This document shows positions 20,153-57,600 of a stretch of 64,000 nucleotides of DNA, in pieces. Source of the DNA: Apostichopus japonicus. Taxonomy: Eukaryota. The stretch is taken from NCBI RefSeq assembly GCF_037975245.1, contig NC_092565.1, positions 23,338,063-23,402,062 on the forward strand. The letters run 5' to 3'. The translations under genes were made by a program, and so were the position numbers. Position 1 is the first letter of the stretch. Every line of letters starts with the position of its first letter. Under the pieces are notes generated by a model. The model made no database searches and was not told the origin of the DNA. It was given only the letters and a program-made list of their open reading frames with translations.

Positions 20153-20743
20153 CTACATGGGTAATGATTGCATGAAATCCTTCACTGCATCGCCGATCTC
20201 AATTGGAGCATCCTCTTGCAGAAAGTGAAGACCTTTAACCTTGACAACTCTCTGGTATGGCCAGTCTTTTGTCTGCTTTCGCAATCCCGCACTGAAGAAA
20301 CCAGGTTGTCCATCGATAAACATTTTTGGAAAGTCCTTCGACTCGGACAACCATTTGGTATAGGCATCGACTATTTCCACCACATTCTGCGGTCCCGTAT
20401 CACGGAAGGGTATTTGGCGTGGCCATGTTAACGTGGGACGACGCGATTCCCCGACTTCTCTGAAAGGTTCAAGGTACGCATCCATTTCCACTGGATCTAA
20501 CTCTCTCAGGATTGCGTTTGGTAGAAGACGCTCCACAAAGAAGTTCTTCTTGAGGACCATTTCTTCTCCTGCTTCAGATCTCAAAGATCCAAAGATATCT
20601 CTAGAGATATCAGGAAAACTCTTTAAGCTCTTAGCAACTCCAATAACGCCCTCAAAATAGACAACACCTTCCACTTTCTGTTGGTTCTGATGAAGCCAGT
20701 GGAGACCTAAACCTGAGCCCCAATCATGACAGATTATTGTAAT
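20153..20743 (-). CDS. Renilla-luciferase-like protein, copy A, exon 2 (ITIICHDWGSGLGLHW…KGLHFLQEDAPIEIGDAVKDFMQSLPM*)
   Basis: The acceptor cag|ATT is on the minus strand (exon starts at 20743) and a TAG stop is at 20153-20155. The exon carries a catalytic-triad-equivalent Asp in HDWG, Glu in VYFEGV and His in GLHFLQEDAP. These correspond to RLuc D120/E144/H285, with Trp after the Asp. Together with exon 1 it gives a 305-aa protein (RLuc is 311 aa). Confidence 0.85.
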   Translation of the reverse strand: MTIICHDWGSGLGLHWLHQNQQKVEGVVYFEGVIGVAKSLKSFPDISRDIFGSLRSEAGEEMVLKKNFFVERLLPNAILRELDPVEMDAYLEPFREVGESRRPTLTWPRQIPFRDTGPQNVVEIVDAYTKWLSESKDFPKMFIDGQPGFFSAGLRKQTKDWPYQRVVKVKGLHFLQEDAPIEIGDAVKDFMQSLPM

Positions 20744-21537
20744 CTGAAGAAAAAAAATCAAGAAAGAAAGAAAGGTCTTTGGAAGTCTTTTCCTAAACTT
20801 GAAGGTCAGGAACCCTGATTTTGGAGGGGGGGGGGGGGGAGGAGTCAACTGATATAAACTGAGCACTGTTGAAATGGCTGCACCATGTTTGAGTGAAAAT
20901 CTTGGCTGTGAAAACTATTGGGGGGAGGGGACAGGAATAGTCCCCTGGCCACCAACATGTAAAATACTTACAATTGCATTTTGTATAAACATACATGACA
21001 GAAGTTGTGCTATCATTGTTTGAGCTACATTTCCTGGGATTATGTGGTCATTCTAGTGGTAAAGGCTTACACATTGAAATTTTCAGAAATATTGACAAAT
21101 GTCAAAGTAACACCTTAACTATCTCTGTTAAATCTTAACGGTTAACATAACTTCATGTGGCAAAATTAGAACATGAATGCAAAATAAGCCTACCTTGTTA
21201 TCATCAATTGATAAACACATGAGCTTCGAGGTAACAATTGTTAGAAAGAAACTTATCAACATCTGTGATTGTAGAAGCCTACCTGAAGTCTTCGCCTGTA
21301 AAAATTGTTTATTGCTTCTGCACAATTATAAAGTAAATTTGCTGCATAATTATTTAATGTTAATCCCAAGGGCCTTGATACAGATTGGGGGTGGGTGGCA
21401 GAAGGGGGCAGGAGACCAATGTTTAACCAGTCTAGAAAGTGCCACATATGATGGACACACAAGTCTTGTAATCATGGGACTCTAGCCTAGTACAAGCAGT
21501 TCTGTAAGGAGATATGATACCAAAAACAAGTGCATAC

Positions 21538-21864
21538 CTTATTTTTCAGGTTTAAAGATTCAAACCACTTTGAGAGGTATTTGTACTGGTCATCATAGGT
21601 GTACATCAAGTCAGGGATTTTACTCGACCTTCCCATGCCAATCAAATCAGGTGCCAAACAGCGGGCAAACCCTTCTACTCGTGGAATGATATGTCTCCAC
21701 AGATAGGACGATGTCGGATTCCCATGAAGAAATACTGCTGTTCTCGATGACTTTTCTTGTGTTGGGTCGGAGTCATAGTAGCTCATTTCGCCATCTAAGA
21801 TCTTGACCCGTTTGTGTGTTGACCACCATTGGTCTGCCGTAATCACGGGCGTAGAGGAGCTCAT
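21538..21864 (-). CDS. Renilla-luciferase-like / haloalkane dehalogenase-family protein, copy A, exon 1 (MSSSTPVITADQWWSTHKRVKILDGEMSYYDSDPTQEKSSRTAVFLHGNPTSSYLWRHIIPRVEGFARCLAPDLIGMGRSSK…LNLKNK)
   Basis: The ATG is on the minus strand at 21862-21864. A GTATGC donor follows codon 109 (minus 21537-21536). The translation aligns to the N-terminal roughly 110 aa of Renilla reniformis luciferase (…WWARCKQMNVLDSFINYYDSEKHAENAVIFLHGNAASSYLWRHVVPHIEPVARCIIPDLIGMGKSGK…). This includes the halide-stabilising Asn in the HGN motif. Confidence 0.85.
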
Positions 21865-22379
21865 GTGGTTAGCTGATACGAGGACGACATTATTTCGCAA
21901 ATGAGAGGTCAAAACGTTCAACCGAGAAACATGTTGAAGTCGTTCCATGATTCTAATCATTGTGACAAGATGGTTTCCAATGAATGGAGTAGCAATAGGT
22001 AGCAAGAAATGGTTAATCACACCAGTCTGTAAATATGGACTCGGGACTTTGACCTAGTAGTATTGCTAGTTACATGGTTCCGCACACTCCGTAACGTACC
22101 TGCGTACCCTCGAAATCCCAGTAGTAATTTCTTAATGGCTGCTAGCTTCAAGCCGGTTGACATTTTCCCAACAAAAATGAAATGTTGGTGTAACCATAAA
22201 TATAACAGGGCAAAATTCTAACTAAGAAAAAAATAAGGGCACACTTTGAGATCACAAGCATATACAGCTCTGCACAATCCCTGACCTTAGTAGGTCAACC
22301 TTTAGCTGATGTAAGTTACTGAAATAAGTAACATAAACAAAATTTAAAAATATATAATAAATTACAGCGACAATTACAG

Positions 22380-22625
22380 TTGAGTTCGTGTGCATTCCGT
22401 TTTCATTCTGTTTACGAAAAAGTAGCAACATGCAACCTTGACTGGCAGTTTTCAGCCCGCAAATATAATTACCTTATCACCTCCTTTTGCTTCGCCTCCT
22501 TTTCACCTCAAAACACGACGGTCCGGAAAAATGGGATGCGATCCAAAAGTGGGTCGTACAAAAAGTCGCTAGGTCGACGCGAGACTTTTTCAGACGTCGG
22601 AAAATTACAGCTATAGTTTACGGAG
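22380..22625. promoter_or_regulatory. CpG-dense block (many CG dinucleotides: cgacggtccgg…gggtcgtac…gtcgctaggtcgacgcgag…gacgtcgg…cgccgactcgg) in otherwise CpG-poor DNA, about 0.5 kb upstream of luciferase-like copy A
   Basis: The local CpG density is clearly higher than in the flanks. Its position is consistent with a promoter or CpG-island-like element for the minus-strand gene, but it could equally be a young repeat. This is purely compositional. Confidence 0.25.
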
Positions 22626-25600
22626 CTCGCCGACTCGGAGACTTTTTTTTTAAATTATTTTTGTAATATCAAATACATAGTCCAAGCTAGCTCACATTCA
22701 TATACTGAGCATCAATTCTGATTTGTGTGTATCTGGTATATGAAGAGTCGGATCATGGAAGATCATGTGTATACAAGTTTGCGTACCGCTGACATATTAT
22801 ATATAGGCCTATAACAACTACAATTTCAGTGGCTCGCAAATAACATTTACAGCAGATCCAGAATATATATCGTCTATTATATATAATTTACAAAGAGAAG
22901 GATTACGAAGTATTCTAAAGGCATCGGCCAGACCTTACCGTGCACGAGGCAACCGAGCATAACTCTTGACTGCCCGTACCATGTGCCTTTCTCTTTCATA
23001 AAAAAATAAATTTGTGAAAACCCTGCAAAATGAAATCGTTTTTTTGCAAAACGATGATCCAATATTCGCAAACTTTTGTAAAAAAAAAATGTAAAGAAAA
23101 ACTGCCGCACGACTGATGGTGGCCATGGGGGACATACCCCTTTCCCGAATTTCCGCACGCCATTGACAAGTTGTGTTATTTATTCATCGGACTGAGTTAT
23201 AGCTATTTGATCGAATGGAATTGTAACGGAAAGATTATGTTTCGTAATGAAACCTATAAAGCATGCAGCCACATTTCCTCTTCTTTTTATATACTATATA
23301 TGTGTTTACAAGGACACCGAATTTGAGGAATCTATTTTCTCCATGATGTTTTAGTATAAATTTTGTTCTGTTTATTCATTAAAAGGGGATGAGAAGGAGG
23401 CCCCCAATGACAGATATTTGGTTTCTACGCCCGCCCCCCCCCACCACGGACAGCTGCATCCCTCTCCTTTATGGAGAACTGCAGCTGCAAGTAATGTAGG
23501 CTATAGACGCTTATAAATTTCTGTTTATGCAAAGGAGAGCTTTATCGCAATGAAGGTTAAGCCGACTCGTAAATTAACGTAACTATAAACTTGCCTGCTT
23601 GTCAATCAGTGAAAAATCTCTCCTGTTGCTCGGATCTTAAGTACAATTTCGCTACAATCTCTGTACTCTATAACTCATATATACGAACAAATCAACTGCA
23701 TCCTGAACTCGGGATTAATTTATCTTAAAGCGATTTGATGTAGCCTACGTTTTAAACTATTTAGTTGAATTCTTTGAAGTTGTATAAGATCGAAAGAACA
23801 AACAAACAATAGGGAAGTCAATAGAAGTAGAGCCTTATGTGGTTTCTGTATCAGCTATACCAGGGACGGGATTTGTTGTCTGAAGTTGGAGTGGCAAACC
23901 CGGGGAAGAGGTTTCAGGGGAGAGGGATATATGTTTAGATTTGATTAAGCCCTAGCTTATTCCTTGTACTAGTTGTGTATTTGAAAATCGCCCGCCTCCC
24001 CCTCTGTAATCCCACCACTGGACTATGCTGTAATTCTGTGTGGCCCTCCGTATTCGATGCTTATAGCCTGTGCGAATAAAGTACGCCACTAGTGTCGTTA
24101 AAGGTAGTCAGTATAGGCCCCAAATTATAGCACGCTATATATTTGCTAGAAGTTTTCAAACAGTACTTTCCTGGAGGTCTTTACACTCCAAATTGTTCTC
24201 ATACATTTTTAAGGAACACACAAGATGACCTAGTGAGGAAAGTTTCCTCGAAGGTTGTATTAAAAAAAAGTTTGAGAATTTTGACCAAAGGTGACCATAT
24301 TCGAATATCTAGCATATTTGGGGCCAATACAGCATACCTATAAAAGCCGACGCCTCTGTAAGGTTGTCTGCGTTAAAACAGGGTGAAACCTCAAACTTCA
24401 AATGGTGCAATCCGAGGCATATTTAGACTATAAATATTGTCTATAATTAGGTCTATAAACGAAATGTTGTGCTTATACATACTTCTGAATTTTTGTGTTC
24501 AGGTGAAGGGGGGGGGGGTAGATACCCTACACCGTCCACCCCCTGTTGACGTAGATCCGCGACGTCTGCTATATATAGTAACGCAATTTATCAAACTTCG
24601 AAAACCGACTTCCACCTATAAATTGGACGGTCAAATGAGAAAGCAGTTACCATATAATAACATGCCTTGTACATGATAAAGCATCTCATGAGAAAGTTCA
24701 TGTTTGAGCGTCATGTCTGTAACATTTTGTTTATACACGAGGTCATTTTAGGGCATTCCCTTAGCAACCAGTAGTAACCTGTCAAGGAGACAACTTACAA
24801 TACCGATATAGTCTATAATAACACTACTCGTTCTGTACCTCTGTATAACTGTCATGTAACCTTTTATATCTGCATCTACAAATCACCTTAATAAACTTAT
24901 ATTATAGACTATTCTGTTATCTCTCGACACCTGGCAACATTTCGAGGCATTGGAGACTATATAGGAAAGTGTAACTGTATGTGGCACGTACATAACAATA
25001 TTTTGTTTTATAGAGGGAGGGTGGGTGGGTTGGGGTGGGAGGGTGGGTGGAGGACACACATAAGGCCTTTATCATCTTTAAAGGAAAGATCCCTTGAATA
25101 ATCAATTTTGACGATATCGTTCGATGAATTAATTCCATCCTTTATTTTGCCAAATCTTATTACTAAAGTATAGATTTCGGATCATCTCACTCCAAAATCT
25201 CAAAGTAAGTAATCTCTAATTTGCGAAAACTGGGGCATATGAAATTCCTGTGGCGAGAGGCGCGGGGGGGGGGGGGGGGGCAGCCGGCTATTCATCGGGT
25301 ACCTGTCATGCCCAAGGCGGATGATGGGTATCTGTAGATCCATCTCCGTGGTTTGATCATGGTAGTTTACCCCCGCATTCTACCTCAACAGGAAAACAGA
25401 CGACCACAGTACCCCAAACTCCATCACCCCCCCCCCCCAACCCTCACCGAAAACAGTAACAACAGCTTGGTATACGGTAGTTATACGCAATTGCACTCCA
25501 CCAATAGAGTATAGGCTATATAGCAAAACTTTGAAGCACGACTTTCATCGATACTACCATGGGCGGGATTACGGGGGGGCAAGAGGGGGCACCCCCCCAC

Positions 25601-27094
25601 TTTTTCCCAGACCTTAGTTCACTTTTTTGTCGTTTTTGCAGACAAATGTGCACAACCCTAATCGAAATGATTCCCCCACAACAGCTCTATCAAATAAGCC
25701 TATTTGTTTCGATTGTAAGTCGAATTTGTGTTTAACATCGTAACATGTAGCATGCAGAATAACTGGAGCTGGAGCTAGCCACATGGTTCATAGCACAGGT
25801 TACGAATCCTGGAGCTAACACACTAGCGATTCAATTCTGCATGTGATGAATCCGCGGCATGTGCTACAGTGCTAGCTCCAGAAATGTCTCTCTGATTTTC
25901 AACGTTGCTGCTCTACTGAATGCGTTGAATAACTAAATCCAGAGAAACGATTTACGAAAGCCAGATTTGCATATTGGGTATATCAATAATTAAATTCAAC
26001 ACACTGACACATGACACCCCCCCCCCCCCCGTGTCATTCAACAATATGCAATGGCAATGCCGATGTAATTTCTTTACTGCTCGAAATCCTGGAAGGATGC
26101 ATGCAAATCGAATAATGTAAATTACAAATTGGCACTAACACAGTAACACATTAAATCCATTGTTACAGTATACAGCACTCGGCAGTTTCGGTATGGCCGA
26201 TAAAATAATGTGTGGCTTTGAGTTCCTTTTTCGGATCTATTCTCGATGATGAATGGAAACACTTACGTTTGGTCTTGAACTGAATATGGATTGTGTTCAG
26301 AAGCTGTCACGGCTGAGATGAACATGTTTAATCGAATCTACGCTGCAACTTATCCTACCATGGAAAGCTGTTTCCAAAAGCGCTTAGATTTCTTCCAGAC
26401 ACAAAACCTTAGTCAGAGTATGAGCAATGTTGCATTTCGATTTCGCCTCTTTATGACAACTTGATGAATTCGGCTATACATGCGAAAGGAGCTTCTCCTG
26501 CCTTCGCAGATTAAAAACCTACTTGCGAAACACCACAGGTCAAGAACGACTAAATAGCTTAGCTGTGTTGAACATTGAAAGAACCATCGACGAAGACATC
26601 CATAAAGTCGTTAGTCGATTCGCCACACATGAAAGTGTCAGCGGACGTCGTCTAGCCCTCCATTAACAGTAACATTCAAGTATTTATTATGCATTTCTAT
26701 GTTGCCTGATAATCTGGCAATAGTTCAAACATAATGCTGGTACTGCCAGGTAATAATTTTATTTTCAAAATCTCAGCCAGTACTATGAAATGACCCGTAA
26801 ATATTGCTCCATGTTGCACCTAGTCGCATTGTAAAATCAAAAAAGTCACCCGCCTCGACTTCAGTGGCGACGGAACCGGTGGATTTGAGGGGCTTATTCC
26901 CCATGAAAAAAAATGGGGGGTAAATGTATGTTCAGCCCCCAATATTTGCCAAGTGCTCCAAGAAGTGGGGACCGCGGGGAGAATTTCGAAGTGGGTGCTG
27001 AACATATTCTTGATCGGTCCAATGCACAATATAGTAATAATTTTAGGGGGAAAGAACTGTCTAGATGCGATTTATTGTTACCAGAGGTGTCATT

Positions 27095-27700
27095 TTTGCT
27101 GATCTAGGATTTCCTTTTTGCTTAAATTTCGACGCGCCGCGCCAACTTATGATGGTGCACCGCCTAAATAGTGACGTATAAGCTTCAGTTGTACATCACC
27201 ATATAAGTTCTTCTATCCGTCCTCCCTAAATTTACACACGTTCATTACTTGTTTAGATGCAATTTAAAGACTATATGGGTGTTAATTTTACCGATCTAAG
27301 GGTACCTTTCATCGAAAATTTCGACGCTCCTTACCAACCGGAGATGGCCCTCCGCTTAGATAGTGACGTATAACAAAAGTTGTACATCACCATCTGACCA
27401 TATGTTCTACTATCAATCCTCTTCAAATTTTTAAACGATAATTAACTATCTATACAATTGCAGACATGAGATCCATATTTCAAGGATGGGTACATGCAGA
27501 GCACTCGGGAAGTGCCGTTTCCGGCCATCTCGAGGGTTTGTAAAGCCAAAAAAAATTTCTTGTACGCTCCGTGCCAACCGATGGTGGCGCTCCGCTTAGA
27601 TAGTCTTGCTGCCAGGTTTGTCCCACCCCCCCCCCACTTTCACAACGCAAATCCCGCCCCTGGATACTGCTATGGGTCGGTTACATGATAAAGCCTTGCA
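27095..27700. repeat. About 200-bp tandem repeat (about 2.5 units), 360-960 bp upstream of luciferase-like copy B; the units contain the MITE-family internal motif in reverse orientation
   Basis: The units start near 27101, 27301 and 27520. Each contains …ttcgacgc(g/t)cc…ccaac(c/t)(g/t)a(t/g)(a/g)tgg(t/c)(g/c)c(a/t)c(c/t)gc(c/t)taaatagtgacgtata…, the reverse complement of ctatctaagcggagcgccacca..ggttggcgcggagcgt found inside both MITEs. Confidence 0.7.
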
Positions 27701-27974
27701 GCAATTTTACCTAGCTCCTTTAACGTACGGGTACTGTAAAGTTCACGTCGAGGGTGAACTCAACCATTAAGATGTGATATTAAGCCATCTGGATTTTATT
27801 GTAAACAGATAAAGTAGCTTGTGATAAAGTTCATGTTTGCGTGCCATTTATGTCATATTGTATTTATGTATATTTTCATTTTAGGTATAGGTTATCGCTA
27901 AGACGATCGCTTGCTATTTTACGTGATCCGCCACCATCAATCGGCTGTATATCATTATGGCAGTGGCCTGTCAA

Positions 27975-27995
27975 ATAGACAACTAATATATATAT
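27975..27995 (+). promoter_or_regulatory. (TA)n / TATA-like element about 75 bp upstream of the copy B ATG
   Basis: The sequence taatatatatatatatc is at 27977-27993, and tataag is at 28034-28039. There is no transcript evidence. Confidence 0.25.
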
Positions 27996-28061
27996 ATATC
28001 GCCACCTAAGACGACTACCAGTTCTGGGGTTGCTGCTATAAGATCTACATTCGGATAAAAC

Positions 28062-28388
28062 ATGAGTTCTTCTTTGCCGATAATTACTGCAGACCAATGG
28101 TGGTCAACACACAAACGGGTCAAGATCTTAGATGGCGAAATGAGCTACTATGACTCCGATCCAACACAAGAAAAGTCATCGAGAACAGCAGTATTTCTTC
28201 ATGGGAATCCGACATCGTCCTATCTGTGGAGACATATCATTCCACGAGTAGAAGGGTTTGCCCGCTGTTTGGCACCTGATTTGATTGGCATGGGAAGGTC
28301 GAGTAAAATCCCTGACTTGATGTACACCTATGATGACCAGTACAAATACCTCTCAAAGTGGTTTGAATCTTTAAACCTGAAAAACAAG
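28062..28388 (+). CDS. Renilla-luciferase-like protein, copy B, exon 1 (MSSSLPIITADQWWSTHKRVKILDGEMSYYDSDPTQEKSSRTAVFLHGNPTSSYLWRH…LNLKNK)
   Basis: The ATG is at 28062 and the donor AAG|GTAAGT is at 28389. From codon 10 onward the sequence is nucleotide-identical to copy A exon 1 except 2 synonymous positions. The first roughly 27 nt differ (MSSSLPIIT versus MSSSTPVIT). Confidence 0.85.
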
Positions 28389-29370
28389 GTAAGTCAATTT
28401 ATTTTTCTCACGCATGATATCACTTTATCAATATTGAATGTATTAAATATAAATTCTAACAGGTGTACAGAAAATGCTTTCTCTTGAACTATAAGATGCA
28501 CGGAGTAAACATTTACACACACACTAACACACTTGAAATGGACGGTGTTATCAACTAATTTTCGTACATGTTAGTCCATCATTTTATTGACCTATCTTAT
28601 ATAAAAACTTGACCGAAAAAAGTTATCTAAACTGCATGTGAACCACAAGAGCTTCTCGAAGGATGAAATCTAATCAAAATTTTCCTTCATGAAATGTTAA
28701 TTTTCTATAAATAGCCAATGTTATAGAATAGGGGCAACAGGTAAAATACTTTGTGGTGTAACTCCTTGTCATTTAGTGATGTAATTTTATATTCTGCAAA
28801 TATAGTCCAGCCATTTGACTGTCAAGTGTCCGCTTGGGGAAGGGGAGGGAGGGGGAGGGGTTGGAATGTACACCATCCCTCTTTTTTAACCCAACACCAT
28901 AACTAAAAGTAGCTATTAACACAACCTTGCCAGTTAGTCCTAATTTATAACCTAAACATGTTTTGTTTTTTCGAGGATGGTATTTATGGGCACAACATTG
29001 CGTTAAGACGTAAGTTACAGTCTAAATATGTCTCAGAACAGCAGAATATACCATCTAACGCATAAATGCCTTACTTGGAAACCCGATACTCCTAATATGG
29101 GAATCGGCATTACATATTATAAAATATTCCCAATTCTAACTATAAAATGTCGATTATAACCCGTATATTTCCCTTGTGCATTTATAGAGTAATTAACCAT
29201 TGAGTCTGATATGAAAACTTGGTTAACAATTTCAACTCAAAAGTGCATCATGAACAGGTGTTTCTCGCTTTCAATTGTCAAAAATATGGTTTGTTTTTCA
29301 AGATTCTAATGTCCGTATCGTGATCCTCTTCATGAATATTCATATCTGTTATTTCTTTAATTTTATGCAG

Positions 29371-29961
29371 ATTACCATCATTTGCCAAGATTGGGGATCT
29401 GGTCTGGGTTTAAACTGGCTCTATCAGAATCAGGATAAAGTTGAAGCATTGGTCTATTTTGAAGCCATTATTGGGGTTCATAAAAGCCTAGATGATTTCC
29501 CAGTTCTAGCTAGGAGCGCCTTTCAGGGTCTTCGCTCCGATGCTGGGGAAGAAATGGTGTTAAAGAATAACATGTTTGTTGAACAACTACTCCCGATGGG
29601 CGTGGCGCGTAAATTGGACCCGATTGAAATGGAGGCGTACCGAGAACCATACAAGAAGGAAGGTGAGTCTCGACGCCCTACCCTCACTTGGCCACGTGAG
29701 ATACCATTTAGAGACACCGGTCCAAAGAATGTTGTGGATATCGTGGATACGTACGCTAAATGGTTGTCTCAATCAAAGGATTTGCCAAAGTTATTCGTAG
29801 ACAGTGAACCAGGTTTCTTCAGTGCCGAATTGCGGAAAATCAACAAGGATTGGCCGAATCAGAAATCTATGACAGTTAAAGGGATACATTTCCTTCAAGA
29901 GGATGCACCAGTAGAAATCGGTGATGCTGTTAAAGAGCTCATGGCCTCTATCTCCAATTAA
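29371..29961 (+). CDS. Renilla-luciferase-like protein, copy B, exon 2 (ITIICQDWGSGLGLNW…KGIHFLQEDAPVEIGDAVKELMASISN*)
   Basis: The acceptor is ttttatgcag|ATT and a TAA stop is at 29959-29961. The exon is the same length (591 nt) as copy A exon 2 but only about 70% aa identical to it. The catalytic Asp (QDWG), Glu (YFEA) and His (GIHFLQEDAP) are retained. Confidence 0.85.
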   Translation: MTIICQDWGSGLGLNWLYQNQDKVEALVYFEAIIGVHKSLDDFPVLARSAFQGLRSDAGEEMVLKNNMFVEQLLPMGVARKLDPIEMEAYREPYKKEGESRRPTLTWPREIPFRDTGPKNVVDIVDTYAKWLSQSKDLPKLFVDSEPGFFSAELRKINKDWPNQKSMTVKGIHFLQEDAPVEIGDAVKELMASISN

Positions 29962-30989
29962 GAAGAAATCAACGTGTTTCCGCCATTTTGATATTACTGA
30001 ACTTTAATCAGCATTCATTAAATGTATGACCTGTTCGAAATTAAACCAAGAGTACTGCTATGACGTCATCTCCGCGCGATACCTTCAAACAGGGCCCGAG
30101 TTGTAACAGGATAGCAAGCTTAATCGGGACACACATCTATTTAAACGAATGTTTAATTTCGAAGGCAACGGTTGTCGACACACACAGCGTACACAAAAGT
30201 ATTACAATGCGAGAATTTGACAATCTCAGTTTCGTAATATCATATTCAGAGTTCTTAACTTTTTAATATATTGATTCTTGACGATGATATCATACTTTTG
30301 CTAGATGTAATTACTCCACTTCTTCATTAATAGATAACATTAAGAGATCTGTGATATTTATCGTACCTTTAAATTCCCGAACAACTTTACTCTGAAGTTG
30401 CAAAAAAACGCCAATTCGCTAAAAAACCAACATAAGACATATTTTAGCATATGTAAAATGCGTAAGCTTTTAATGTCTTTGTTAATGTGCTCTGAATCGC
30501 AATTGGAAGTTATAAATGTCTCAAAAAGTGGTTGAAATACCTATTTTTATGTTTATTTCTGTTGGCAACGTATACTTATGATTCGGCAACTTAGCTGAAA
30601 AAACTCAAAAGACACAAACAGACACCGTGACGACTAAACATTACTGTGCAAATTATGGACATAGCACAGTGAACCTAAAGTGCCAGTTTCATTTTAGTTA
30701 TTTTAAGCTCAAATTCTATGAATTCAAGTTCGTGTCGGGAGGGAAACAATTATGAGTAGATGCTAAAATCATACTTTTTTGTAAAGTAGAACAGAGCTTG
30801 TGATAAACGTCATGTATGCGTAACATCCGTCACTTTATGTGCACTTACATCGTGGGAGTTTGGACATGATCTACCACTATGATCGGATTTATATAGACCA
30901 ATAACTTTATAGACAATTTCAAGTCAAAGAGATAAATATAGGTCTGGCGGGGGGGGGGGGGGGCTTCTGGCTTGTTTAGATTTACAGGT

Positions 30990-31140
30990 TGCCGGCGGTT
31001 AATAAAGACGAATGGTGTTCTGCACACAAACGAGTCATTGATCTATATGGCGGAATGAACTGCTATGACTTCGATCCAGTCTTACACGATAAAAATCACT
31101 CCAGAACAGTCCGGTTATATTTCCATGAAATCCCGAAATA
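30990..31140 (+). pseudogene. Decayed third copy of luciferase-like exon 1 (…WCSAHKRVIDLYGGMNCYDFDPVLHDKNHSRTVRLYFHEIPK*)
   Basis: The nucleotide stretch aatggtgttctgcacacaaacgagtcattgatctatatggcggaatgaactgctatgacttcgatcc… is clearly homologous to the exon-1 sequence aatggtggtcaacacacaaacgggtcaagatcttagatggcgaaatgagctactatgactccgatcc…. It carries an in-frame stop and lacks the HGN motif. About 250 bp upstream (30760-30850) lies the same promoter-proximal module that is found upstream of copy B. Confidence 0.5.
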
Positions 31141-31767
31141 GATCTACATCTTTCTGAAGAGACTATCATTTTCAGAAAATCGCATCATTAGTTCACAGCA
31201 AGGCGATTTGTACCGTTCTCTGAGAAGGGATAGACTTTCTTATTTTCGTCTCTTACCCATACGTAATTGAAACCGTTTTTTGGACGTTAACAATGAAACG
31301 CCCAAACAAAGGCGGTGGGCCCTAGTACGTATCAGTGTCGGGTTTGATGATTCTGATTCTGACAATGGCTATGGTTATGACTAGGACTACCGGTATATCA
31401 TGACTATGACCACGACCACGGCCACGACCACGACTATGAGTATGACTATGATTATGACTGAAAATATACCAAAACAATCACTCTCTTAGGTCATTTTAGG
31501 TATTCTGTTTTTTTTTTCACGACAATGGTTAACCTTTCGAGAGGATATACTATAATTGTGGTATATCTGGCCACCATATTGCAATTCCTTTACAAATCAA
31601 AACTTTACTACTTCATCGGAGAAATTAGCCATGTGCAATTTGTTATTTCACGCTTCGAAAAGCAACTGGAGGGATTAACCGAAAGCTGCGGCTGGCTGTT
31701 TCAATGTTTAATTAGGGGTTTTGATTCTCTGGAAAGAGTAAAATCTCTAATTATGTGTGTACAAATA

Positions 31768-32163
31768 CAGTGGCGGAGCTAGGGGTATTGGTCAGAGGGG
31801 GCGAGAATTGTCTATAGGGGCGCTTTTGACACTATCTAAGCGGAGCGCCACCACAGGTTGGCGCGGAGCGTACAGAATTTTTTTGAGTAAAGATACTCCC
31901 TAGATCGCCGAAAATGACCCTTTCCGGGCCTTGCTAGTTTGCAGATAAACGAAGAATAAATAGCCGTTAGAGCATTTTGTCAGAAAATTACAGCAAGAAA
32001 ATGTGACAAATGTCAATATTTTTATGAGGAGCGCAATAAAAAAGTCAATAATCGCGAATAAGTAAAAAGTCGTAAAAAGCTGAAAAGGGCGCCAGCAATA
32101 CATTTGAGTCCGTCGGGGGGCATTCGCCCCCCCCCCCCTGACTATATGGACGCTCCGCCACTG
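31768..32163. mobile_element. hAT-like MITE (396 bp), same family, with TIR CAGTGGCGGAGC…GCTCCGCCACTG and a perfect 8-bp TSD tacaaata
   Basis: The TSD tacaaata is at 31760-31767 and again at 32164-32171. There are 12-bp perfect TIRs. The internal sequence ctatctaagcggagcgccaccacaggttggcgcggagcgtacagaattttttt is homologous to the interior of the 16799-17076 element. The ORF-track entries 31525-31782 and 31900-32187 overlap it and are spurious. Confidence 0.65.
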
Positions 32164-40110: not shown

Positions 40111-40649
40111 CATCTAGATGATGTTGTTCATCCAATCCCAATTCTCTGGATTATTTCTTCTCTGCTAAGATAAGGTATTGTTATTGGTCAATTGATCTGA
40201 TTACTTTAGCCTGTCATGTTATACAATGAAAGTTAGGCCAGCCATACTATAGAAACATCTGTAGAAACAGTAGTAATAGTATGTTAGAGATAACTCTATA
40301 CTTTGTGCTAATGTATTTGTAATTGCAGGGTTTTCTTTTGTCTGGATATTCCATGGCTGACTTTTTCTAACTTACAAGAGTATTCAGGTGGATTCACATA
40401 CAGTATTTAATAGAAATTTGCGGATATTTAGGTAGTTTCCGACAAAGTTGTAATAATTAGCGGGCAAAAACTTTCTTGACAATGATTGACTATTTTACTC
40501 TGACTTATGGAATATATGGTGCATGTGTGCTAGAGTGAGCCATTTATATTTAAAATCTGGTAATATTTCCACAAAGTTACCAGGCACTATTCAAAATCAT
40601 ATTTTCCTACTAAACAGAAGGGGAACCACGACTGAGACCACACCCGTAG

Positions 40650-41155
40650 GCTCTATGTATTGCTTTGTGGAGATATAACCTATCTAACACCCGTAGGCTC
40701 TATGTATTGCTTTGTGGAGATATTACCTATCTAACACCCGTAGGCTCAATGTATTGCTTTGTGGAGATACAACCTAACACCCGTAGGCTCTATGTATTGC
40801 TTTGTGGAGATATTACCTATCTAACACCCGTAGGCTCAATGTATTGCTTTGTGGAGATATTACCTATCTTACACCTGTAGGCTGTATCTATTGCTTTGTT
40901 GAGATATTACCTATCTAACACCCGTAGGCTCTTTGTATTGCTTTGTGGAGATATTACCTATCTAACACCTGTAGTCTCTTTGTATTGCTTTGTGGAGATA
41001 TTACCTATCTAACACCTGTAGGCTCTATGTATTGCTTTGTGGAGATATTACCTATCTAACACCCGTAGGCTCTATGTATTGCTTTGTGGAGATATTACCT
41101 ATCTAACACCCGTAGGCTTTATGTATTGCTTTGTGGAGATATTACCTATCGAACA
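40650..41155. repeat. 47-bp minisatellite (tatctaacacccgtaggctctatgtattgctttgtggagatattacc)n, about 11 units, in ZDHHC16 intron 3
   Basis: It is directly visible and explains ORFs 40665-40880 and 41084-41326. Confidence 0.9.
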
Positions 41156-41440
41156 CAACCAGCTCTGTTAATAAAGGTTTTGTTGCTTTCACCTGATAAA
41201 CAACAATCACAGAATATTTGGGGCACAATCGCATCCACACATGTGTGTGATTTCCAGACTCTTGTGATGCTAGCACTGTTACCGTTTGCACTTTCTAAAG
41301 TATATTTGTTATATGAACTAAGTTGAGTATCTTAGACACCCATCTGAAGGATATTCTAGGTATTTCTATGTTTTTTCTACATCAAACTATTCTGGGTTCT
41401 AATCTCATTTGAATTATCTCCTTAATCCTACTTCTTACAG

Positions 41441-48055: not shown

Positions 48056-51000
48056 TATTCAACAGTAAAAAGGTGCATTATGTCTGTTTTGACATGGAAA
48101 CAGTGAATTGATGATGACAACATCTACAGCCCCAATTCTTATATTAAGAGAAGGCCCGGCTTTATAGGTCTCTTACAAATTTTAATTGTGGTTATTGTTT
48201 TTCAGCTAAGTGTAATGCATTTTTGTTTCCAGGGTAACAGACTTACTCTGGTAACTAACAAGTATGTTCATTTTCGAAAACATTTCTTGGCGACAAATAG
48301 TATGCCGAGCAAGCAACAGGCAGATTTAAATAGCTTTAGCGTATTGGGATATTGTACCAGCAAATAATCCAGGGGGCAAATAGTTGTTGGAAAAGTAGGT
48401 AAAAAAAAAATACTCGGAGCTCTGGCTATGAAGAGTATTTGTGTAGTTTTATTGTTCCATTCTTGTGAAGTCTAATATTAGTGTTTGATATAAAATTCAT
48501 TTTCAGATGTCTTGTTGCTCAATATGAATAAGCCTGTGACAGATTCACAGTAATGTATGTATCTTGCAGGAAATAGCAGTTTCTAGGACACCTGTTAGGT
48601 TTACAAACTTTGTTTAGCATTAAATAAAGAAATTGATAAGGATCTATGCTCAAAGACCTTACCAATTTTGTCATCTTGCAAAGCCCTTTGAAACACGAAC
48701 CAGGTAAATTGTTACACATTTTCATCTCGGTTTATTCATTCCAAATTTTGATACAAAGTATAAAAAAAACTGCAGTTTTTTCGGTTGGGTGGGGGGGGGG
48801 CAGTCTAAAACCCCTTGGATCAAATTGATGACTAATATGAGTATCAAAGTTGTGATCTGTAAGAGACTACAATGCATCACTAATTGATAATGCTACCTAC
48901 TGACTTGTGCTCAGTATAATGTTCTTCTTGATAAATCCTTGAAACCGGGTAAATTTGGAATGTTTGCTCAGCTGTCAATGTTTTTTGTATTTATGAGATT
49001 TATCAAAATGCATCTTTTGTAGAAATATTCTTTTCCTGTAACGATAAATTTATTGTAATATTATTAAGAAATACAAAGACATTTTCAGCTGAAGTGCCGT
49101 GATGGCATCAGTCATTCTGCTGTGGCCAGATACATTAAGCAAATATCACAAACTTTGTATACAATTCAGATCTTCTTGATTCAAAATGCTATTAGGATGA
49201 GGTTTTTTGTCGTATTAAAGGTGCCAACATTTTCAACAATCATGCTAACCAATCAACTGCAGCCACCAGAAATTCTTTTTAATTATTAGTTTGTTAGAAA
49301 ATAATATACATTACATATGGATTTTAAATCTGGTGTTAAATTGTGAAACAGACGGCAATCTGAAGATAAGTTAAATGAATAAACTAAAAGTGATAGTTTT
49401 TGGATCTGTCATGTTTCCCTGCCATGTTTTTTTATTTGTGATTTGATTATAGAAATGTTTTTAGCCAGAAAGTTAGTTTTGGTGTATCACTGTCTAGCAA
49501 AGACACAAATTATGTTAGAAGATTATGTTGTGAAGTTTTCTGCACCATACTTGGGAGTGAATGTGCTGGTCTCATCATTTCTGTCTCTGTGTGTGAACAG
49601 ACAGCTCTCAGTGTCTAAATTGCAGCTCCCTGGTATAAAGAAGTCAATTTATTGTGCATCTATTATTGGCTTTGGTGCTATATCATACACTGATGGTTGC
49701 GGTCTTCAATGTCCCATAATGCAACAGTCCGCAGATTATTTTCAGTAGGTCACAAGACTTTTCAAGAATGTCAGAAAGTTATCTAGTTTTCAGAACTTGT
49801 GATAGATTAGGTTACTTGATTTAACAACCAGTCCACAATCTAAGCTAGTTTTCATGCATTGTGAGCATTAATTCTCAAAGTGGCTGGTCCGTGGCTCGTT
49901 CCGGATGGAATATCCTGGGTCATGGGACTAAAAGTTTGCCGCCTGCTATTGTAAGGTATCTGTATTAATTTGTGCTTTAATCCATTCTTTCATTCAACTT
50001 TTTTTTGTGATTTGCCAAATTACTTTCAGTTGCAAAAAAGTTAACATAAAGTGGAATGTGAAAAGGTTGATTCATTTATTTATTTTAATGTGGGCACAAT
50101 GACTGAACAGACTTGATTACTTTGTAGTGGTAACAAAGGGGGGAGGGGAAGGCGTCAATATGGTTTGATCGCTGAAAAAGGTGCAATGTACATTGATAAA
50201 TAATCTAAGAAATTGAAGGGCAGTGTAATTTAAAAAAAAAAAATGATGTATTGTTTAGCTGAATCAGATTATTGATTTTAATATGCTGTTAAAGCAGTAA
50301 AATAGATTTTGATCAGTAGATTTTATTACTTTCTTGCCAATTATTAAGGTCTTTATGTAACTTGGTTTGTTTTAACGACTATGTTTATAAAGACAGGGTC
50401 TTGCTCTTCCTGGAATTGTCTCCAGAAATCATGTACCCTCCTAGGACTGTCCTGGAAATAAGGGTATAAAGATCTTTGTATAATTTCAGTGTGTAAATGC
50501 ACATTTTTAATCATCTTTCTTCATGAACTGCAGTTTCCCCAGTTTAAAGGTACTGTGTTCATTTGGGGGAAGTATCAAAAAGATCAATCGATTTATGGAA
50601 TTGATTACTGCCACCACCAAAGCATTAAGATCCCTGCTGAGACATTTCTCTTATCCAAAATCCTAAATGAATTTGACGGTTGGAATTTCCAGAAATGGAC
50701 ATTTGAAATGCTTTCAGATATACTTTTTATGATGGTAATTTTTGGTAATTTAGTGCCAATAGTAAAGACTGTCAAAATCCTGCTCATTTGATATTTAACG
50801 TCCATGTGAGATGTAAAAATGTATTGAAGTGTCTAGAAGCACTAAACAGCTCTCACTAAAATGACATTTGATTTCTTTATGGAAGGTAACCCACAAAGTA
50901 CAAAACAACAACTGACCAAAGAGGATACTTTTCACGTTTTTCTTTTCAAATTGTAAATTTCAACAGCACAAGCTCTTGATTTGGTGCGTAGCGTTAATTG

Positions 51001-54000
51001 TAAACAATGTAGAGAGGAACGTACTGCTTTCTGATTCTTTAGGAATTTGACTTATATTAGAGATCAAGATTATCGCCATCAATACTGTGGTGTCACAATA
51101 AGGAATGGACCGGGGGCGTTTGCGGGGGAGAGGGACCGGAGGAGGGTATTCTTGTACTCATGTATAATGGTGTTTCAAATCATGTGCTTGATTTTCTTTT
51201 GTATGCTATCCGGAATCAGCTGTATAATTTGTTTGCATAACCTTTTATGCTCAAATGACAAAATACTTGAGTATAATTTGTATTTGTATTAAATCTGTAT
51301 AATTGAGTACAAGGAAAAATCTTGTTTTTATTTCCCCGTGTCTGAAAAACTACTGCCATTCCAGTTTTTTGCAGCTTAATGTTTAAACAGAAATACGAAG
51401 TAACTGACATTTAAACCCATTTGTATTCATTGTTCATTATTTAAATTGGTATGTTATATGAAGGTTTGGTTTTTAATCCCCTGCTGAAATCCCTGTTTCT
51501 CCTCGTGTTAAAAAAAAGTCTGAGATAGCCACTTGACATAAGTACAGTTCTCACTAATCCTGACAGCAAAGTCAGCAAGAAAGCAAAATGTCTGTATCAT
51601 TAATGATTACAAAACAGTCAATTAAGGACAGACGATGAGAATCATATGTTACAAACATTTATTCTATCAAGTTTGAATTTCTGAAAGTGAAAAATATTAC
51701 AAAGGGAAAGGTTTGCAAAATATGATTAAAAGACTGTACATTTTCATTGACGAAAATGGGTAAATTACAGAATAGAAAAGGTAGTGAGAAATACTGTTTC
51801 ATCAAATTATCTATTAGTAACATGAGTTATGGGTGACAAAGGCCTAATTAGAGAGGGAGGGGCTTTCAGCCCCTGGGCCTGATGTCAATCTGGTGAAATA
51901 TGGGGAAATAAAAGTATGTATGTATTTCTCATTTTCAAGATAATGATGAATACAGGAACTACATGAGAAAAAAAAAAGTAATTTCTCACAGCGTCAAACC
52001 AGTATTGACAATTTGACGATACAACGTAATGGCATTTATACTGTGCCTCCAGTCACCACTGTGGCGCCCAAATATTCAAGAAAAGTCAAAATTACAGTGA
52101 TAAGTATTCAAACTTTAAAGAAGCGTTATGGCCACTCTCTAATGCATTTTAGCTTGCTTAGAATCTTTTCCTCCTACTAATTTAAGTCTTCTTTGATGTT
52201 TTAGGAACAACTTAACAGATTTAATACAATCTCTTTTGAGCAATCTCTGTCTTGCTAAAATTTAGAAAGGGAAATAGTTCTGTGGATGCTCTCATATAAA
52301 TCCTTAAGGAAAAGCATTACTTTTGTTAAGTCACCAAGACACTAAATGTATCACTGAATATTAAATACATCTTGATAGTAATCAGATAAATCATAACCGG
52401 CTATTCTGCACACCTATCAAAAACATGCAAGATATTCAAATTTGATTATAAATATGCATATTTGTTCTCAGTTCAAAAGCAGCCATTGTAATAATCAGTT
52501 AGTACACAAACCTATTATAAATAGAAGTTCTCAAACAACTGATACACAAACAACACAAGCCCACTGCTTCAAGGTACTTATATTAAGACAAGTCTTTCTA
52601 TTCTTTTAAATAAATGAATGAATTTTTTTTCTGAGTTCTCATATGTAAATTAATTAACTCTTGTTAAAGAACAACAAAAAAACTGGAGACAGTCATTATG
52701 AGAGTACTTCAAAAGAAGTATTTTGTAAATTAGAAAGAATTTCATCACGGGATAGTGATATACTGTACATTCTGATTCAAACTATGGAAGATGTGATCCT
52801 TGTAACTACCTAGCCGACCGCAAACCTCAAATTTGTGGGAGGAATTTCGGGAAGTTTATTAGTCTGCATGGATAATTTTGTCTGTGTAAAAAAGGGTATT
52901 TTCTGATGAACCAGAGCTTACTTGCAAATTTACTTAAACATCGATTTACAAAAAAACACTCTTATTATACAAAACAAAAAAAGCTTGAAAGTAAATTAAC
53001 TATGCTTTGGTAACAAGTAATGGTCTACTGTATGAAAGATAATGTTATTTGAATATTTACATGAATGTAGTGAATAGTATTTGAAGTAACTTCAACAGGT
53101 AGTCCCACATCTCTCACTAAATGTTGAACATTCTTCTCCAGTTTTAAAAGGGCCATAGAGAAACATTTGTTGTGCAAATTGCAAGACAGATTAAAAAACC
53201 TCAGCAAACCTAGATTGACAAATTTACATGCTAGGCCAATAGGGCGACTCAACCCCCAGATCTTGCAGGCCTGCACAATGGATTTTTCGCAGGATTGTGG
53301 GTCATTTTCCCCCCTCCATTTTGGAGGGTGGGGAGGCAGGCAGACCAAGATTGAAAACTCACAGATTTGACCCGTGATGTGCATTGAATACAAATCAAGT
53401 TGAGGAGAACTGCACATTTGTAGGAGAGAGTTCATAGTTTAGCACTTTGATTTGCTTTATTTAAGACTACTGCTACATAAATACAAAACCATGTTCAATT
53501 CTAATCTGCCACAAAATGTTGCAGCTTTGAGCAAAATATAAAGATACCTGATTTAATCAAGACAACCGCCATCTTGCAACCCCCTCCTAGTTCCCTATCA
53601 ATTTCAATCTCCAATTGCAATCGATTGCTATCAAACATTTTAAGTTTAAAAATCTAGTGGTAGAAGACCAAGGTGATTAAATCAACATTTTAATGAATTA
53701 TTCAGTGAATTCTATTACTAACATTTTTTTTTTCTACTTTGCTAATTTCTTTATTTAATCAATTATTAAAAGGAATCATTTTAGAATTTCAGACAGAAAA
53801 TGTTCCAAACTTGAGGAATGGTATACTGACAATTAACAAGTCAAGTGGGCATTGTTAGTTTTACATAAATATCATTAACTAAAGAATGTAGCTATGGTTA
53901 TGAAAGAGAAGAGCTGCATTATTTTCATTACCCATACAGAAAATGGAACAGCCTGATGGAATTCAAATGTATCATTTTTGGTTTTCCTTAATGTTAACGA

Positions 54001-54652
54001 GTTTATGCTTCATGAGTGAATAACCAGATCTAAGTTGAAAATTTAGTAGTAATTCTTAATTTTTTATGATATCCACCCACATCTTAGTTGCTAGGAATTA
54101 CAAGATGACCATGACAGCTTAGAATAAAGAAGGCAGCCTTTCACTGTGTTAGTAGAACCAATGGATGCTTCTTCATGTTCACTGTATGAAGTTCAGTTTA
54201 AGCTTTTAATATAAAATACTACCTTGTTGAGGTAATCACATTCCAAATTTGAGTCTGTTAAATAACAAAGCTTTTTTTGTGTTGCGTTTGCCAACATTCT
54301 GGTTGTCAGACACATTAACCTTGAAAGGACATATCAAAGTACAGAACATTATAAGACTATTAATTATGTTACTTTGGTCAACCAAACTTGCACCAAGAGT
54401 GACAAAATTAGCCTGCACTCCAATTAACATCCCTTAACATCCAACACCCCTTGAACGTTCTGAACTGTTTCATACTGTAATGAAACAGTTTACAACATTA
54501 AAGAAATACTTCATTGGCTGAAGTTGCTTGTTAATAAAAAAGTGTCCAATATTTTCTGCATCAATTTGTCAAAACAACATCCTCATAGCATTTTGTATGA
54601 CAAAGATGTGAATTTTTCAAATTTGGTAATATTTTGTGAAATGAATCCTATT
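48056..54652. repeat. Tandem segmental duplication, copy 1 (about 6.6 kb)
   Basis: It is colinear with 54653-61573. Long stretches were compared by eye: 48058-48700 versus 54653-55290 are about 97% identical, 50490-51500 versus 57540-58500 about 90%, and 52000-54440 versus 58960-61400 about 96%. The junction is …gtgaaatgaatc|ctattcaacagtaaaaagg. Confidence 0.85.
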
Positions 54653-57600
54653 CAACAGTAAAAAGGTGCATTATGTCTGTTTTGACATGGAAACAGTGAA
54701 TTGACAATGACAACATTTACAGCCCCAATTCTTATATTAAGAGAAGGCCTGGCTTTATAGGTCTCTTACAAATTTAATTGTGGTTATTGTTTTTCAGCTA
54801 AGTGTAATGCATTTTTGTTTCCAGGGTAACAGACTTACTCTGGTAACTAACAAGTATGTTCATTTTCGAAAACATTTCTTGGCGACAAGTAGTATGCCGA
54901 GCAAGCAACAGGCAGATTTAAATAGCTTTAGCGTATTGGGATATTGTACCAGCAAATATTCCAGGGGGCAAATAATTGTTGGAAAAGTAGGTAAAAAAAA
55001 ATACTCGGAGCTCTGGCTATGAAGAGTATTTGTGTAGATTTATTGTTCCATTCTTGTGAAGTCTAATATTAGTGTTTGATATAAAATTCATTTCCAGATG
55101 TCTTGTTGCTCAAAATGAATAAGCCTGTGACAGATTCACAGTAATGTATGTATCTTGCAAGAAATAGCATAGTTCTAGGACACCTTTTAGGTTTACAAAC
55201 TTTGTTTAGCATTAAATAAAGAAAGGATTTATGCTCAAAGACCTTACCAATTTTGTCATCTTGCAAAGCCGTTTGAAACACGAACCAGGTAAATTGTTAC
55301 ACATTTTCATCTCGGTTTATTCATTCCAAATTTTGATACAAAGTAAAAAAAAAACTGCAGATTTTTCGGTGGGGTGGGGGGGGGGCAGTCTAAAACCCCT
55401 TGGATCAAATTGATGACTAATATGAGTATCAAAGTTGTGGTCTGTAAGAGACTACAATGCATCACTAATTGATAATGGTACCTACTGACTTATGCTCAGT
55501 ATAATGTTCTTCTTGATAAATCCTTGAAACTGAGTAAATTTGGGATGTTTGCTCAGCTGTCAATGTTTTTTGTATTTAAGAAATTCATCAAAATGCATCT
55601 TTTTGTAGAAATATTCTTTTCCTGTAAGGATAAATTTATTGTCATATTATTAAGAAATACAAAGTCATTTTCAGCTGAAGTGCCGTGATGGCATCAGTCA
55701 TTCCGCTATGGCCAGATGCATTAAGCAAATATCACCAAATTTGTAAACAATTCAGATCTTCTTGATTCAAACTGCTATTAGGATGAGGTTTTTTGTCGTA
55801 AGGTGCCAACATTTTCAACAATCATGCTAACCGATCAACTTCAGCCACCAGAAATTCTTTTTAATTATTAGTTTGTTAGAAAATAATATACATTACATAT
55901 GGATTTAATAATATACATTACATATGGATTTTAAATCTGGTGTTAAATTGTGAAACAGATAGCAATCTGAAGATAAGTTAAATGAATAAACTAAAATTGA
56001 CTTGTGTTTGGAACAGTCATGTTTCCCTGCCATGTTTTTTGATTTGTGAATTGATTAAAGACATGATTTAAGCCAGAAAGTTAGTTTTGGTGTGTCACTG
56101 TCTAGCTAAGACACAAATTATGTTAGAAGGTTATGTTCTGAAGTTTTCTGCACCATACTCGGGAGTGAATGTACTGGTCTCATCATTTCTGTCTCTGTGT
56201 GTGAACAGAGAGCTGTCAGTGTCTAAATTGCAGCTCCCTGGTATAAATAAGTCTTAAAGTCAATTTATTGTTCATCTATTGGCTTTGGTGCTATATCATA
56301 CACTGATGGTTGTTGTCTTCATTAATCCCGTAAGGCAACAGTCCACAGACTACTTTCAGTAGGTCACGAGACTTTTCAAGAATGTCAGGAATTCATCTAG
56401 TTTTCAGAACTTATAGATTAGGTTACTTGAGTTAACATCCAGTCCACAATCTAAGCTAGATCACTTCTCAGACTTTTGGCTAAGATTATGTGTAATATCT
56501 GTTCCCTTTCAAGGGGAATGGTGATGCACACCCGACGATGATCACACACTCACAGTCCCGATGCAAGGGGACTGGGGTTGAGAGCGGATCAGTCGTTTGC
56601 TAGTTTGATTTTTCGTGCCCTTGGGGTCTTTCCTGGGTGACTATTCTTAAAAAGTATCTAAGCTAGTTTTCCTGCATTCTGAGCATTCATTCTCAAAGTG
56701 TTGGGTCGTGGCTCGTTCCAGACTCAGTATCCTGGGTCATGGGACTAAAAGTTTGCTGCCTGCTATTGTAAGGTATATGTATTAATTTGTGCTTTAATCC
56801 ATTCTTTCATCTAACTTTTTTTGTAATTTGCCATATTACTTTCAGTTGCAAAAAAGTTAACACAAAGTGGAATGTGAAAAGGTTGATTTATTTATTTATT
56901 GTAATGAGGGCACAATGACTGTACAGACTTGATTACTTTGTAGATTGGTATTATAAGTAGCATATTTTGTTGAGGGGGTTGTGACAGGAGAGCGGTAACA
57001 AAGGGCGAAGGGTAAGGGGGGGGGGCATCAATATGGTTTGATCGCTGAAAAAGGTGCAATGTACATTGATTAATATTCTAAGAAATTAAAGGGCAGTGTA
57101 ATTTTAAAAAAAAATCATGTATTGTTTAGCTGAATCAGATTATTGATGTTAATATGCTGTTAAAGCAGTAAATCAGTTTTTGATCAGTAGATTTTATTAC
57201 TTTCTTGCCAATTATTAAGGTCTTCATGTAACTTGGTTTGTTTTAGGAAGTTGCTTATAAAGACAGGGTCTTGCTCGTCCTGGAATAGTCACCGGAATGC
57301 ATGTACCCTCCCAGGACTGTCCTGGAACTTGTCAAAACATAATGAATAATTTATATTTTACCTTCGAATAATTTCAATTATATTTAAACTATTATTTGGA
57401 AAGATCACTTGATGGTAATCAGTTATTATTTACTACTACAATGTTCATAAGTTCATCCACACTTGCAGATAACAGAATAAAGATCTTTGTATAACTTCAC
57501 TGTGTAATTCACATTTTAATCATCTTTGTGAATTGGCTGAAGTTTCCCCAGTTAAAACGTAGTGTGTTCATTTGCAGGGAAATGTCAAAATGATCAATGG

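Follow-up and report, generated by a model that had tools for sequence, protein, structure and literature searches.

Interlocus gene conversion with exon-limited tracts is classically known from the primate gamma-globin genes, RHD/RHCE and the red/green opsins, and conversion between inverted repeats is known from the arms of Y-chromosome palindromes and from the inverted Hsp70 pair of Drosophila. Here we analysed a 64,000-nt stretch of the genome of the holothurian Apostichopus japonicus (RefSeq assembly GCF_037975245.1, contig NC_092565.1, positions 23,338,063 to 23,402,062 of the forward strand; hereafter the window, whose numbering is used throughout). It carries two inverted paralogs, gene A and gene B, assigned to the haloalkane dehalogenase (HLD)/Renilla luciferase (RLuc) family. 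Comparison of the two sequences indicates that exon 1 has very probably undergone recent interlocus gene conversion between them. As in the classic cases, a tract of hundreds of base pairs is nearly identical, synonymous sites included, within old and diverged paralogs; the tract stops where homology stops, and sequences group by species inside it and by orthology outside it. Unlike those cases, the A/B pair is old enough for all sequence beyond the tract to be saturated or unalignable, which makes the contrast unusually sharp. The pair resembles the Y palindromes and Drosophila Hsp70 in being inverted, head-to-head and on one chromosome, an arrangement in which the arms are kept alike by non-crossover repair and the spacer would be turned around by a crossover. 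However, the A/B arm is only about 300 bp long and lies in a coding exon, rather than spanning whole genes or long arms. The case adds an example to a familiar process; it neither reveals a mechanism of its own nor settles any long-standing question. A literature search found no report of gene conversion in these holothurian HLD/RLuc-like genes.

Both genes have two exons and are divergent (head-to-head), gene A on the minus strand and gene B on the plus strand, 6.2 kb apart. The features of the locus are as follows.

21538..21864, minus strand: gene A exon 1, 327 nt, codons 1-109 from the MSSS start, with the GT donor at 21537
20744..21537, minus strand: gene A intron, 794 nt, without homology to the gene B intron
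20153..20743, minus strand: gene A exon 2 (591 nt, stop codon included), coding for the nucleophile elbow (CHDWGS), cap domain and C-terminal core
21865..21948, minus strand: in-frame N-terminal extension of gene A, 28 codons, MERLQHVSRLNVLTSHLRNNVVLVSANH, annotated in P0001 and outside the putative converted tract
21865..28061, no strand: spacer between the divergent genes, holding both 5' regions, of polymorphic length
28062..28388, plus strand: gene B exon 1, 327 nt; translation identical to P0003 ('putative renilla-luciferin 2-monooxygenase')
28389..29370, plus strand: gene B intron, 982 nt
29371..29961, plus strand: gene B exon 2 (591 nt, stop codon included), with CQDWGS as nucleophile elbow
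21538..21837, minus strand: putative converted tract, gene A arm, exon-1 nt 28-327; identity extends through the donor GTA to 21535
28089..28388, plus strand: putative converted tract, gene B arm, exon-1 nt 28-327; identity extends through GTA to 28391

The introns of both genes are in phase 0 with GT..AG ends, and each coding sequence is 918 nt long (305 aa). The gene A translation is identical to P0001, an A. japonicus 'putative renilla-luciferin 2-monooxygenase' that has an extra 28-aa N-terminal extension.

A repeat search and self-blastn recovered the two exons as an inverted repeat with arms at 21535-21866 and 28060-28391 (332 nt, 97% complementary, 6193 nt between them). When the exons were compared base by base, eight differences between A and B fell within nt 1-27 and only two within the 300 nt from nt 28 to nt 327. 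Both of the latter were synonymous (nt 99, GAC in A and GAT in B; nt 324, AAT in A and AAC in B), bearing out the original prediction that the genes differ at just two synonymous sites from codon 10 to the splice donor. Over codons 10-109 the two genes were 99.3% identical in nucleotides and 100% in amino acids, with a proportion of synonymous differences (pS) of 0.032 and of nonsynonymous differences (pN) of 0. The longest perfect blocks in the tract were 224 nt and 71 nt, so the repeat is not the perfect 300-bp one first described. In exon 2, by contrast, 196 of the 591 nt differed (66.8-67.2% nucleotide and 68.9% amino acid identity), pS was saturated at 0.84-0.85 and pN was 0.19; the amino acid identity of about 70% given earlier was therefore sound, and the nucleotide value of about 75% was too high (66.8%). 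A 60-nt sliding window showed the step that the earlier reading had called for, with identity of 98-100% before the exon 1/exon 2 junction and of 55-75% after it. In the genomic sequence, identity was lost at once after the donor GTA.

The first 27 nt (8 of 27 differing), the introns and the flanks were likewise far more diverged than the tract, as had been claimed. No homology between A and B was detected by sensitive blastn in the introns (794 vs 982 nt), the 5' flanks or the 3' flanks, nor by global alignment of introns and flanks against shuffles (z = 1.5, 0.05 and -2.1). The binomial probability of two or fewer differences in 300 nt was 4e-49 at the exon-2 divergence rate and 9e-20 at 15.7%, the exon-1 divergence between the paralogs of another holothurian; that of two or fewer differences at 62 synonymous sites was 9e-22 with pS = 0.6. 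The earlier figure of 6.5 kb between the copies is right as a start-to-start distance but not as the spacer, which measures 6.2 kb here and 11.4 kb in the other haplotype.

Transcripts from two other holothurians served as outgroups. SRR27871393 yielded X (A-like, L001) and Y (B-like, L003), and SRR32120647 yielded a gene A ortholog, Sp3A (L007, P0171). These messenger RNAs confirm the exon junction, and the gene A junction KNK/ITI is continuous in L001 and L007. In exon 1, nucleotide identity between A. japonicus and the outgroup orthologs was 75-80%, and pS was saturated against all three outgroup sequences (0.73-0.83) and reached 0.99 among the outgroups. The paralogs within A. japonicus were much closer than these orthologs (A and B, 0.993 identity and pS 0.03; A and Sp3A, 0.803 and pS 0.74), which is the outcome that the original prediction expected of conversion in a comparison with other species. 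Genes A and B were equally distant from Sp3A in exon 1 (80.3%). In exon 2, gene A was nearer to Sp3A (dN, the nonsynonymous distance, 0.069; 78.8% nucleotide identity) than to gene B (dN 0.214; 67.2%), indicating that the duplication is older than that speciation. The A/B duplication thus came before at least one other holothurian lineage branched off.

The two exons also supported different groupings. Among exon-1 nucleotides, 42 sites grouped A with B and X with Y, a single site grouped A with X and B with Y, and none grouped A with Y and B with X. The corresponding counts in exon 2 were 28, 26 and 8 for nucleotides and 8, 13 and 0 for amino acids, and the exon-2 residues backing orthology were mostly in the cap-domain region (residues 141-203). 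No recent tract was found between X and Y, whose exon 1 is 84% identical (15.7% divergence) with no identical run longer than 23 nt. Their pS was about 0.6 in both exons and over the whole coding sequence, and their dN was 0.04 in exon 1 vs 0.19 in exon 2. This pS lies below every between-species value, and the quartet patterns are mosaic, with the species-grouping sites concentrated at the start of exon 2 and in the C-terminal third. The pattern suggests an older, mosaic conversion in the X/Y lineage that left the cap domain untouched, or else a more complicated history.

A homology search with the open reading frame (ORF) of gene B exon 1 returned three proteins and no allelic series, and exact look-up of exon-1 read-through ORFs returned no population samples in the collection searched. 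The homology search did recover a third, diverged A. japonicus paralog (P0174; L013 8085-9487, in GCA_002754855.1 scaffold MRZV01002779.1) with the same intron position. Its exon 1 shows about 76% nucleotide identity, and its amino acid identity to gene A is 70% in exon 1 and 57% in exon 2. The annotated protein is 232 aa long, truncated or mis-spliced, and the paralog is on two scaffolds (L013 and L014), possibly haplotigs. With only about 76% nucleotide identity in exon 1 it was rejected as a hidden donor; it illustrates an old exon 1 that has not been converted. The searches turned up no ortholog of gene B in a close relative.

Both copies were also present in an independent A. japonicus assembly of 2017 that represents another haplotype (GCA_002754855.1, scaffold MRZV01000214.1). 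This assembly was 97.9-99.0% identical to the window, with many indels and a mismatch divergence of 0.3-1.1%. It retained the same copy-specific first 27 nt, intron starts, bases at nt 99 and nt 324 and tract boundaries, and added one private single-nucleotide polymorphism at nt 51 of gene B exon 1. Its spacer carried a 5227-bp insertion at window positions ~27016-27023 (L004 3750-8976, no Ns). This insert has interrupted ORFs of 120-173 aa and resembles a mobile element in decay. Because of it, the spacing of the inverted arms is polymorphic, at 6.2 kb in one haplotype and 11.4 kb in the other. The spacer had the same orientation in both, with the same 5' 27 nt joined to the same exon 2 in the two haplotypes or assemblies compared. 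The inverted arms proposed as a potential substrate for inversion are thus real, but an inversion itself was not seen.

Repeats of about 300 bp are open to mis-joining in short-read assemblies, and an assembler could in principle have pasted exon 1 of one copy over the other or collapsed the two. However, the two assemblies, about 1-2% apart and separated by the 5.2-kb spacer indel, agree on both copies, each with its own 5' 27 nt, flanks, intron and bases at nt 99 and nt 324. Two Logan contigs from two further individuals connect copy-specific intron to the tract. Contig L011 (SRR23999949, gene A) breaks off at nt 294 of exon 1, 30 nt short of the nt-324 difference, and contig L012 (SRR23999932, gene B) starts at 28089, which is exon-1 nt 28, the first base after the nt-27 difference. 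From how such assemblers work, these ends would be the k=31 graph branch points expected from a shared tract. The artefact of a collapsed or duplicated exon, against which the original prediction had warned, is excluded by the A/B-specific differences kept in the second assembly. The contig breaks also fit a shared tract, and we consider an assembly origin of the identity extremely improbable. Contig L012 carries the gene A base (C) at nt 99 beside the gene B intron. We do not read this as a sign that the tract is polymorphic, since de Bruijn assembly can pop that bubble or switch copies within the 224-nt shared block.

Other explanations accept the sequence as it stands and differ in its cause. 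An overlapping element such as an antisense RNA, a regulatory element or an RNA structure might freeze the synonymous sites of exon 1 by purifying selection at the nucleotide level. The exon-1 protein is indeed better conserved than that of exon 2, both between P0174 and gene A (70% vs 57% amino acid identity) and between X and Y (dN 0.04 vs 0.19). However, compared with every other holothurian sequence, the true gene A ortholog among them, exon 1 has reached saturation at its synonymous sites (pS 0.73-0.99), and X and Y themselves have an exon-1 pS of 0.60. Codon bias was absent (GC content at third positions, GC3, 0.41-0.54). Nucleotide-level constraint is therefore excluded by the saturation of these sites across holothurians (pS 0.73-0.83), in line with the earlier argument that purifying selection does not produce identity at synonymous sites, and we hold this explanation to be highly improbable. 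An exon-1 segment inserted through template switching or another homology-independent route, as a non-homologous exon replacement or partial duplication, would give the identical end product, and the prior identity was perhaps low for classical conversion. The replacement is nevertheless in register and in frame, with both exons 327 nt long and neither junction indels nor duplicated flanks. An in-register replacement of the same length without scars is the signature of a homology-guided event, and a homology-independent origin is accordingly very unlikely. Somewhat less remote, though still improbable, is RNA-templated conversion, in which a spliced transcript or cDNA of one paralog would have served as repair template for an exon-1 break in the other. 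Such a tract would halt at the exon/intron junction, as the template has exon 2 in place of the intron. In keeping with this, the 3' end of identity lies within 3-6 nt of the splice donor and the introns share no homology. However, a DNA template yields the same boundary, as homology ends at the intron; nothing in the sequence demands RNA; the 5' boundary at nt 27/28 lies inside the exon at no transcript landmark; and RNA-templated repair is rare relative to ectopic DNA conversion.

Recent interlocus gene conversion thus accounts best for the data. Four observations carry it: the identity step, synonymous identity within the species beside saturation between species, the incongruence of exon 1 and exon 2, and reproducibility across assemblies. 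Genes A and B are old duplicates whose exon 2, introns and flanks have diverged to saturation, and about 300 bp of exon 1 in one copy would recently have been overwritten with the other copy as template, in one event or the latest of a series. The likely mechanism is intrachromosomal, homology-directed, non-crossover repair between inverted repeats. At its 3' end the tract would stop at the exon/intron junction because homology ends there, the boundary presumably being set by intron heterology; a tract is not resolvable in the unalignable intron. The nt 324 difference may itself mark the tract end, with the remaining AAG/GTA held by splice-site constraint. The 5' end falls between nt 27 and nt 28, inside the coding sequence, and fits a stochastic tract end rather than an exon swap. 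Exon 2 has probably escaped conversion for good, because no identical A/B run of at least 20 nt is found in it. The outcome would be a common N-terminal core combined with a cap-domain/nucleophile half that is specific to each paralog. Divergence within the tract (0.67%) is of the same order as the mismatch between the two assemblies (0.3-1.1%), indicating that the event, or the last of a series, was very recent relative to the saturation among holothurians.

Several points weigh against this account. The original prediction was of a recent non-reciprocal exchange limited to exon 1. The exchange itself is supported by the identity step, the incongruence and the reproducibility, but strict non-reciprocity is not: donor and recipient are not separable, so non-reciprocity is something that we infer. 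An exon-1 dN of 0.055 to Sp3A fits gene A as donor and fits continuous homogenisation as well. The copies may have had no more than about 80-85% identity in exon 1 when conversion began, as in X and Y (84%, longest run 23 nt), and such identity is low for starting homologous repair unless homogenisation is recurrent. The 3' boundary at the splice donor is also expected from an RNA- or cDNA-templated event. The full haplotypes compared number only two, and both outgroups are distant (dS, the synonymous distance, saturated), so that the event is datable only coarsely.

A bolder account, to which we give a small chance, treats the exon-1 repeat as a maintained recombination module with recurrent conversion and crossovers or, alternatively, the stop at the splice donor as a mark of RNA-templated repair. 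On this view the grouping of exon 1 by species, seen in two holothurian lineages, would reflect recurrent conversion that preserves a shared N-terminal core; the cap/nucleophile half would stay specific to each paralog under selection, and an occasional crossover in the 300-bp arms would flip the 6-11 kb spacer. If this were true, flips would swap promoters and the presequence-like extension of gene A between two catalytically different exon-2 modules.

The protein family of the pair was assigned from sequence profiles and motifs. Both proteins scored above the cut-off of the HLD equivalog NCBIfam NF002938 (320.7 and 329.4 bits vs 241) and matched Pfam Abhydrolase_1, and their best PDB matches were AncHLD-RLuc 6g75 (E = 5e-134) and RLuc 2psd (1.6e-98). 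The HGNP, DWG, YFE and HFLQED motifs are intact in both translations. On these grounds A and B are members of the HLD II/RLuc family of alpha/beta-hydrolases, resembling HLD subfamily II and RLuc proteins in profile score, structural matches and motifs. The putative catalytic and halide residues are Asn in HGN(49)P, D116-W117 in (H/Q)DWGS, E140 in YFE and H281 in HFLQED. We take these to be the catalytic Asp-Glu-His triad and the halide-stabilising Asn and Trp, matched by motif and not by structural superposition to RLuc N53/D120/W121/E144/H285. Membership of the family makes dehalogenase or coelenterazine-oxidising (luciferase) activity a candidate function of A and B. We know of no record of luminescence in A. 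japonicus. Members of the family in other echinoderms include DspA of S. purpuratus and the luciferase of Amphiura filiformis (PMC5413902, PMC12059646).

One difference between the two genes adjoins the active site. Immediately ahead of the nucleophile Asp, gene A has His (CHDWGS; 20723-20728, minus strand), as in most HLD/RLuc proteins. Unlike most members of the family, gene B (CQDWGS; 29386-29391, plus strand) and its likely ortholog, the B-like transcript P0004 of another holothurian, have Gln at this position. Gln before the nucleophile would thus be a shared derived change in the B lineage, adjoining the active site.

They also differ at the N-terminus. The 28-codon extension of gene A is conserved in the ortholog of another holothurian (P0171/L007; L007 270-353: MERLQAVSRLKVVSSHLGSHGCRVSANN) and looks like a targeting presequence. 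Gene B has no such extension, with an in-frame TAA two codons upstream of its ATG. Because the extension is present only in A and this stop precedes the B start, the two products may differ in localisation. The tract starts just downstream of the site where the A and B N-termini differ.

Elsewhere in the window, further duplications and repeats were recorded.

30989..31153, plus strand: decayed exon-1-like relic, about 1 kb downstream of gene B (tblastn E = 5e-6)
48056-49848/54649-56459 and 50466-54476/57477-61447: blocks, among others, of a segmental duplication

The relic reads LPAVNKDEWCSAHKRVIDLYGGMNCYDFDP... and has 38-40% amino acid identity to residues 5-56, with HGNP lost and an in-frame stop. 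No exon 2 matching it was found. The relic suggests that the locus went through one more duplication, now dead. The segmental duplication is direct (48056-54476 vs 54649-61447, about 6 kb, about 91-93% identical in several blocks) and unrelated to the exon-1 tract. A tandem array at 40640-41156 has a period of about 47 nt (self-matches at offsets 47, 94, 141 and so on) and about 92% identity, and sits where GC skew is strongly negative (38-40 kb: -0.24). Upstream of gene B, at 27086-27604, diverged direct repeats of about 96 nt have spacings of 192 and 240 nt, and an inverted copy lies downstream of the gene at 31831-31884 (56 nt, 91%); together these are probably a dispersed short repeat element. 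Apart from the ORF holding gene A exon 1, the spacer at 21865..28061 contains no ORF of at least 100 aa. The 2017 annotation places a COX15-like gene and a DHHC gene next to the pair.

The locus offers a clean, well-bounded case of conversion between very old inverted duplicates in an echinoderm, and it shows that a single exon can stay open to conversion once the other parts of the gene have escaped it. Short-read assemblies and quantification by RNA sequencing will confuse A and B over 300 bp. Exon 1 of these genes will also mislead the HLD/RLuc phylogenies that are used to trace the origins of luciferases in echinoderms and cnidarians.

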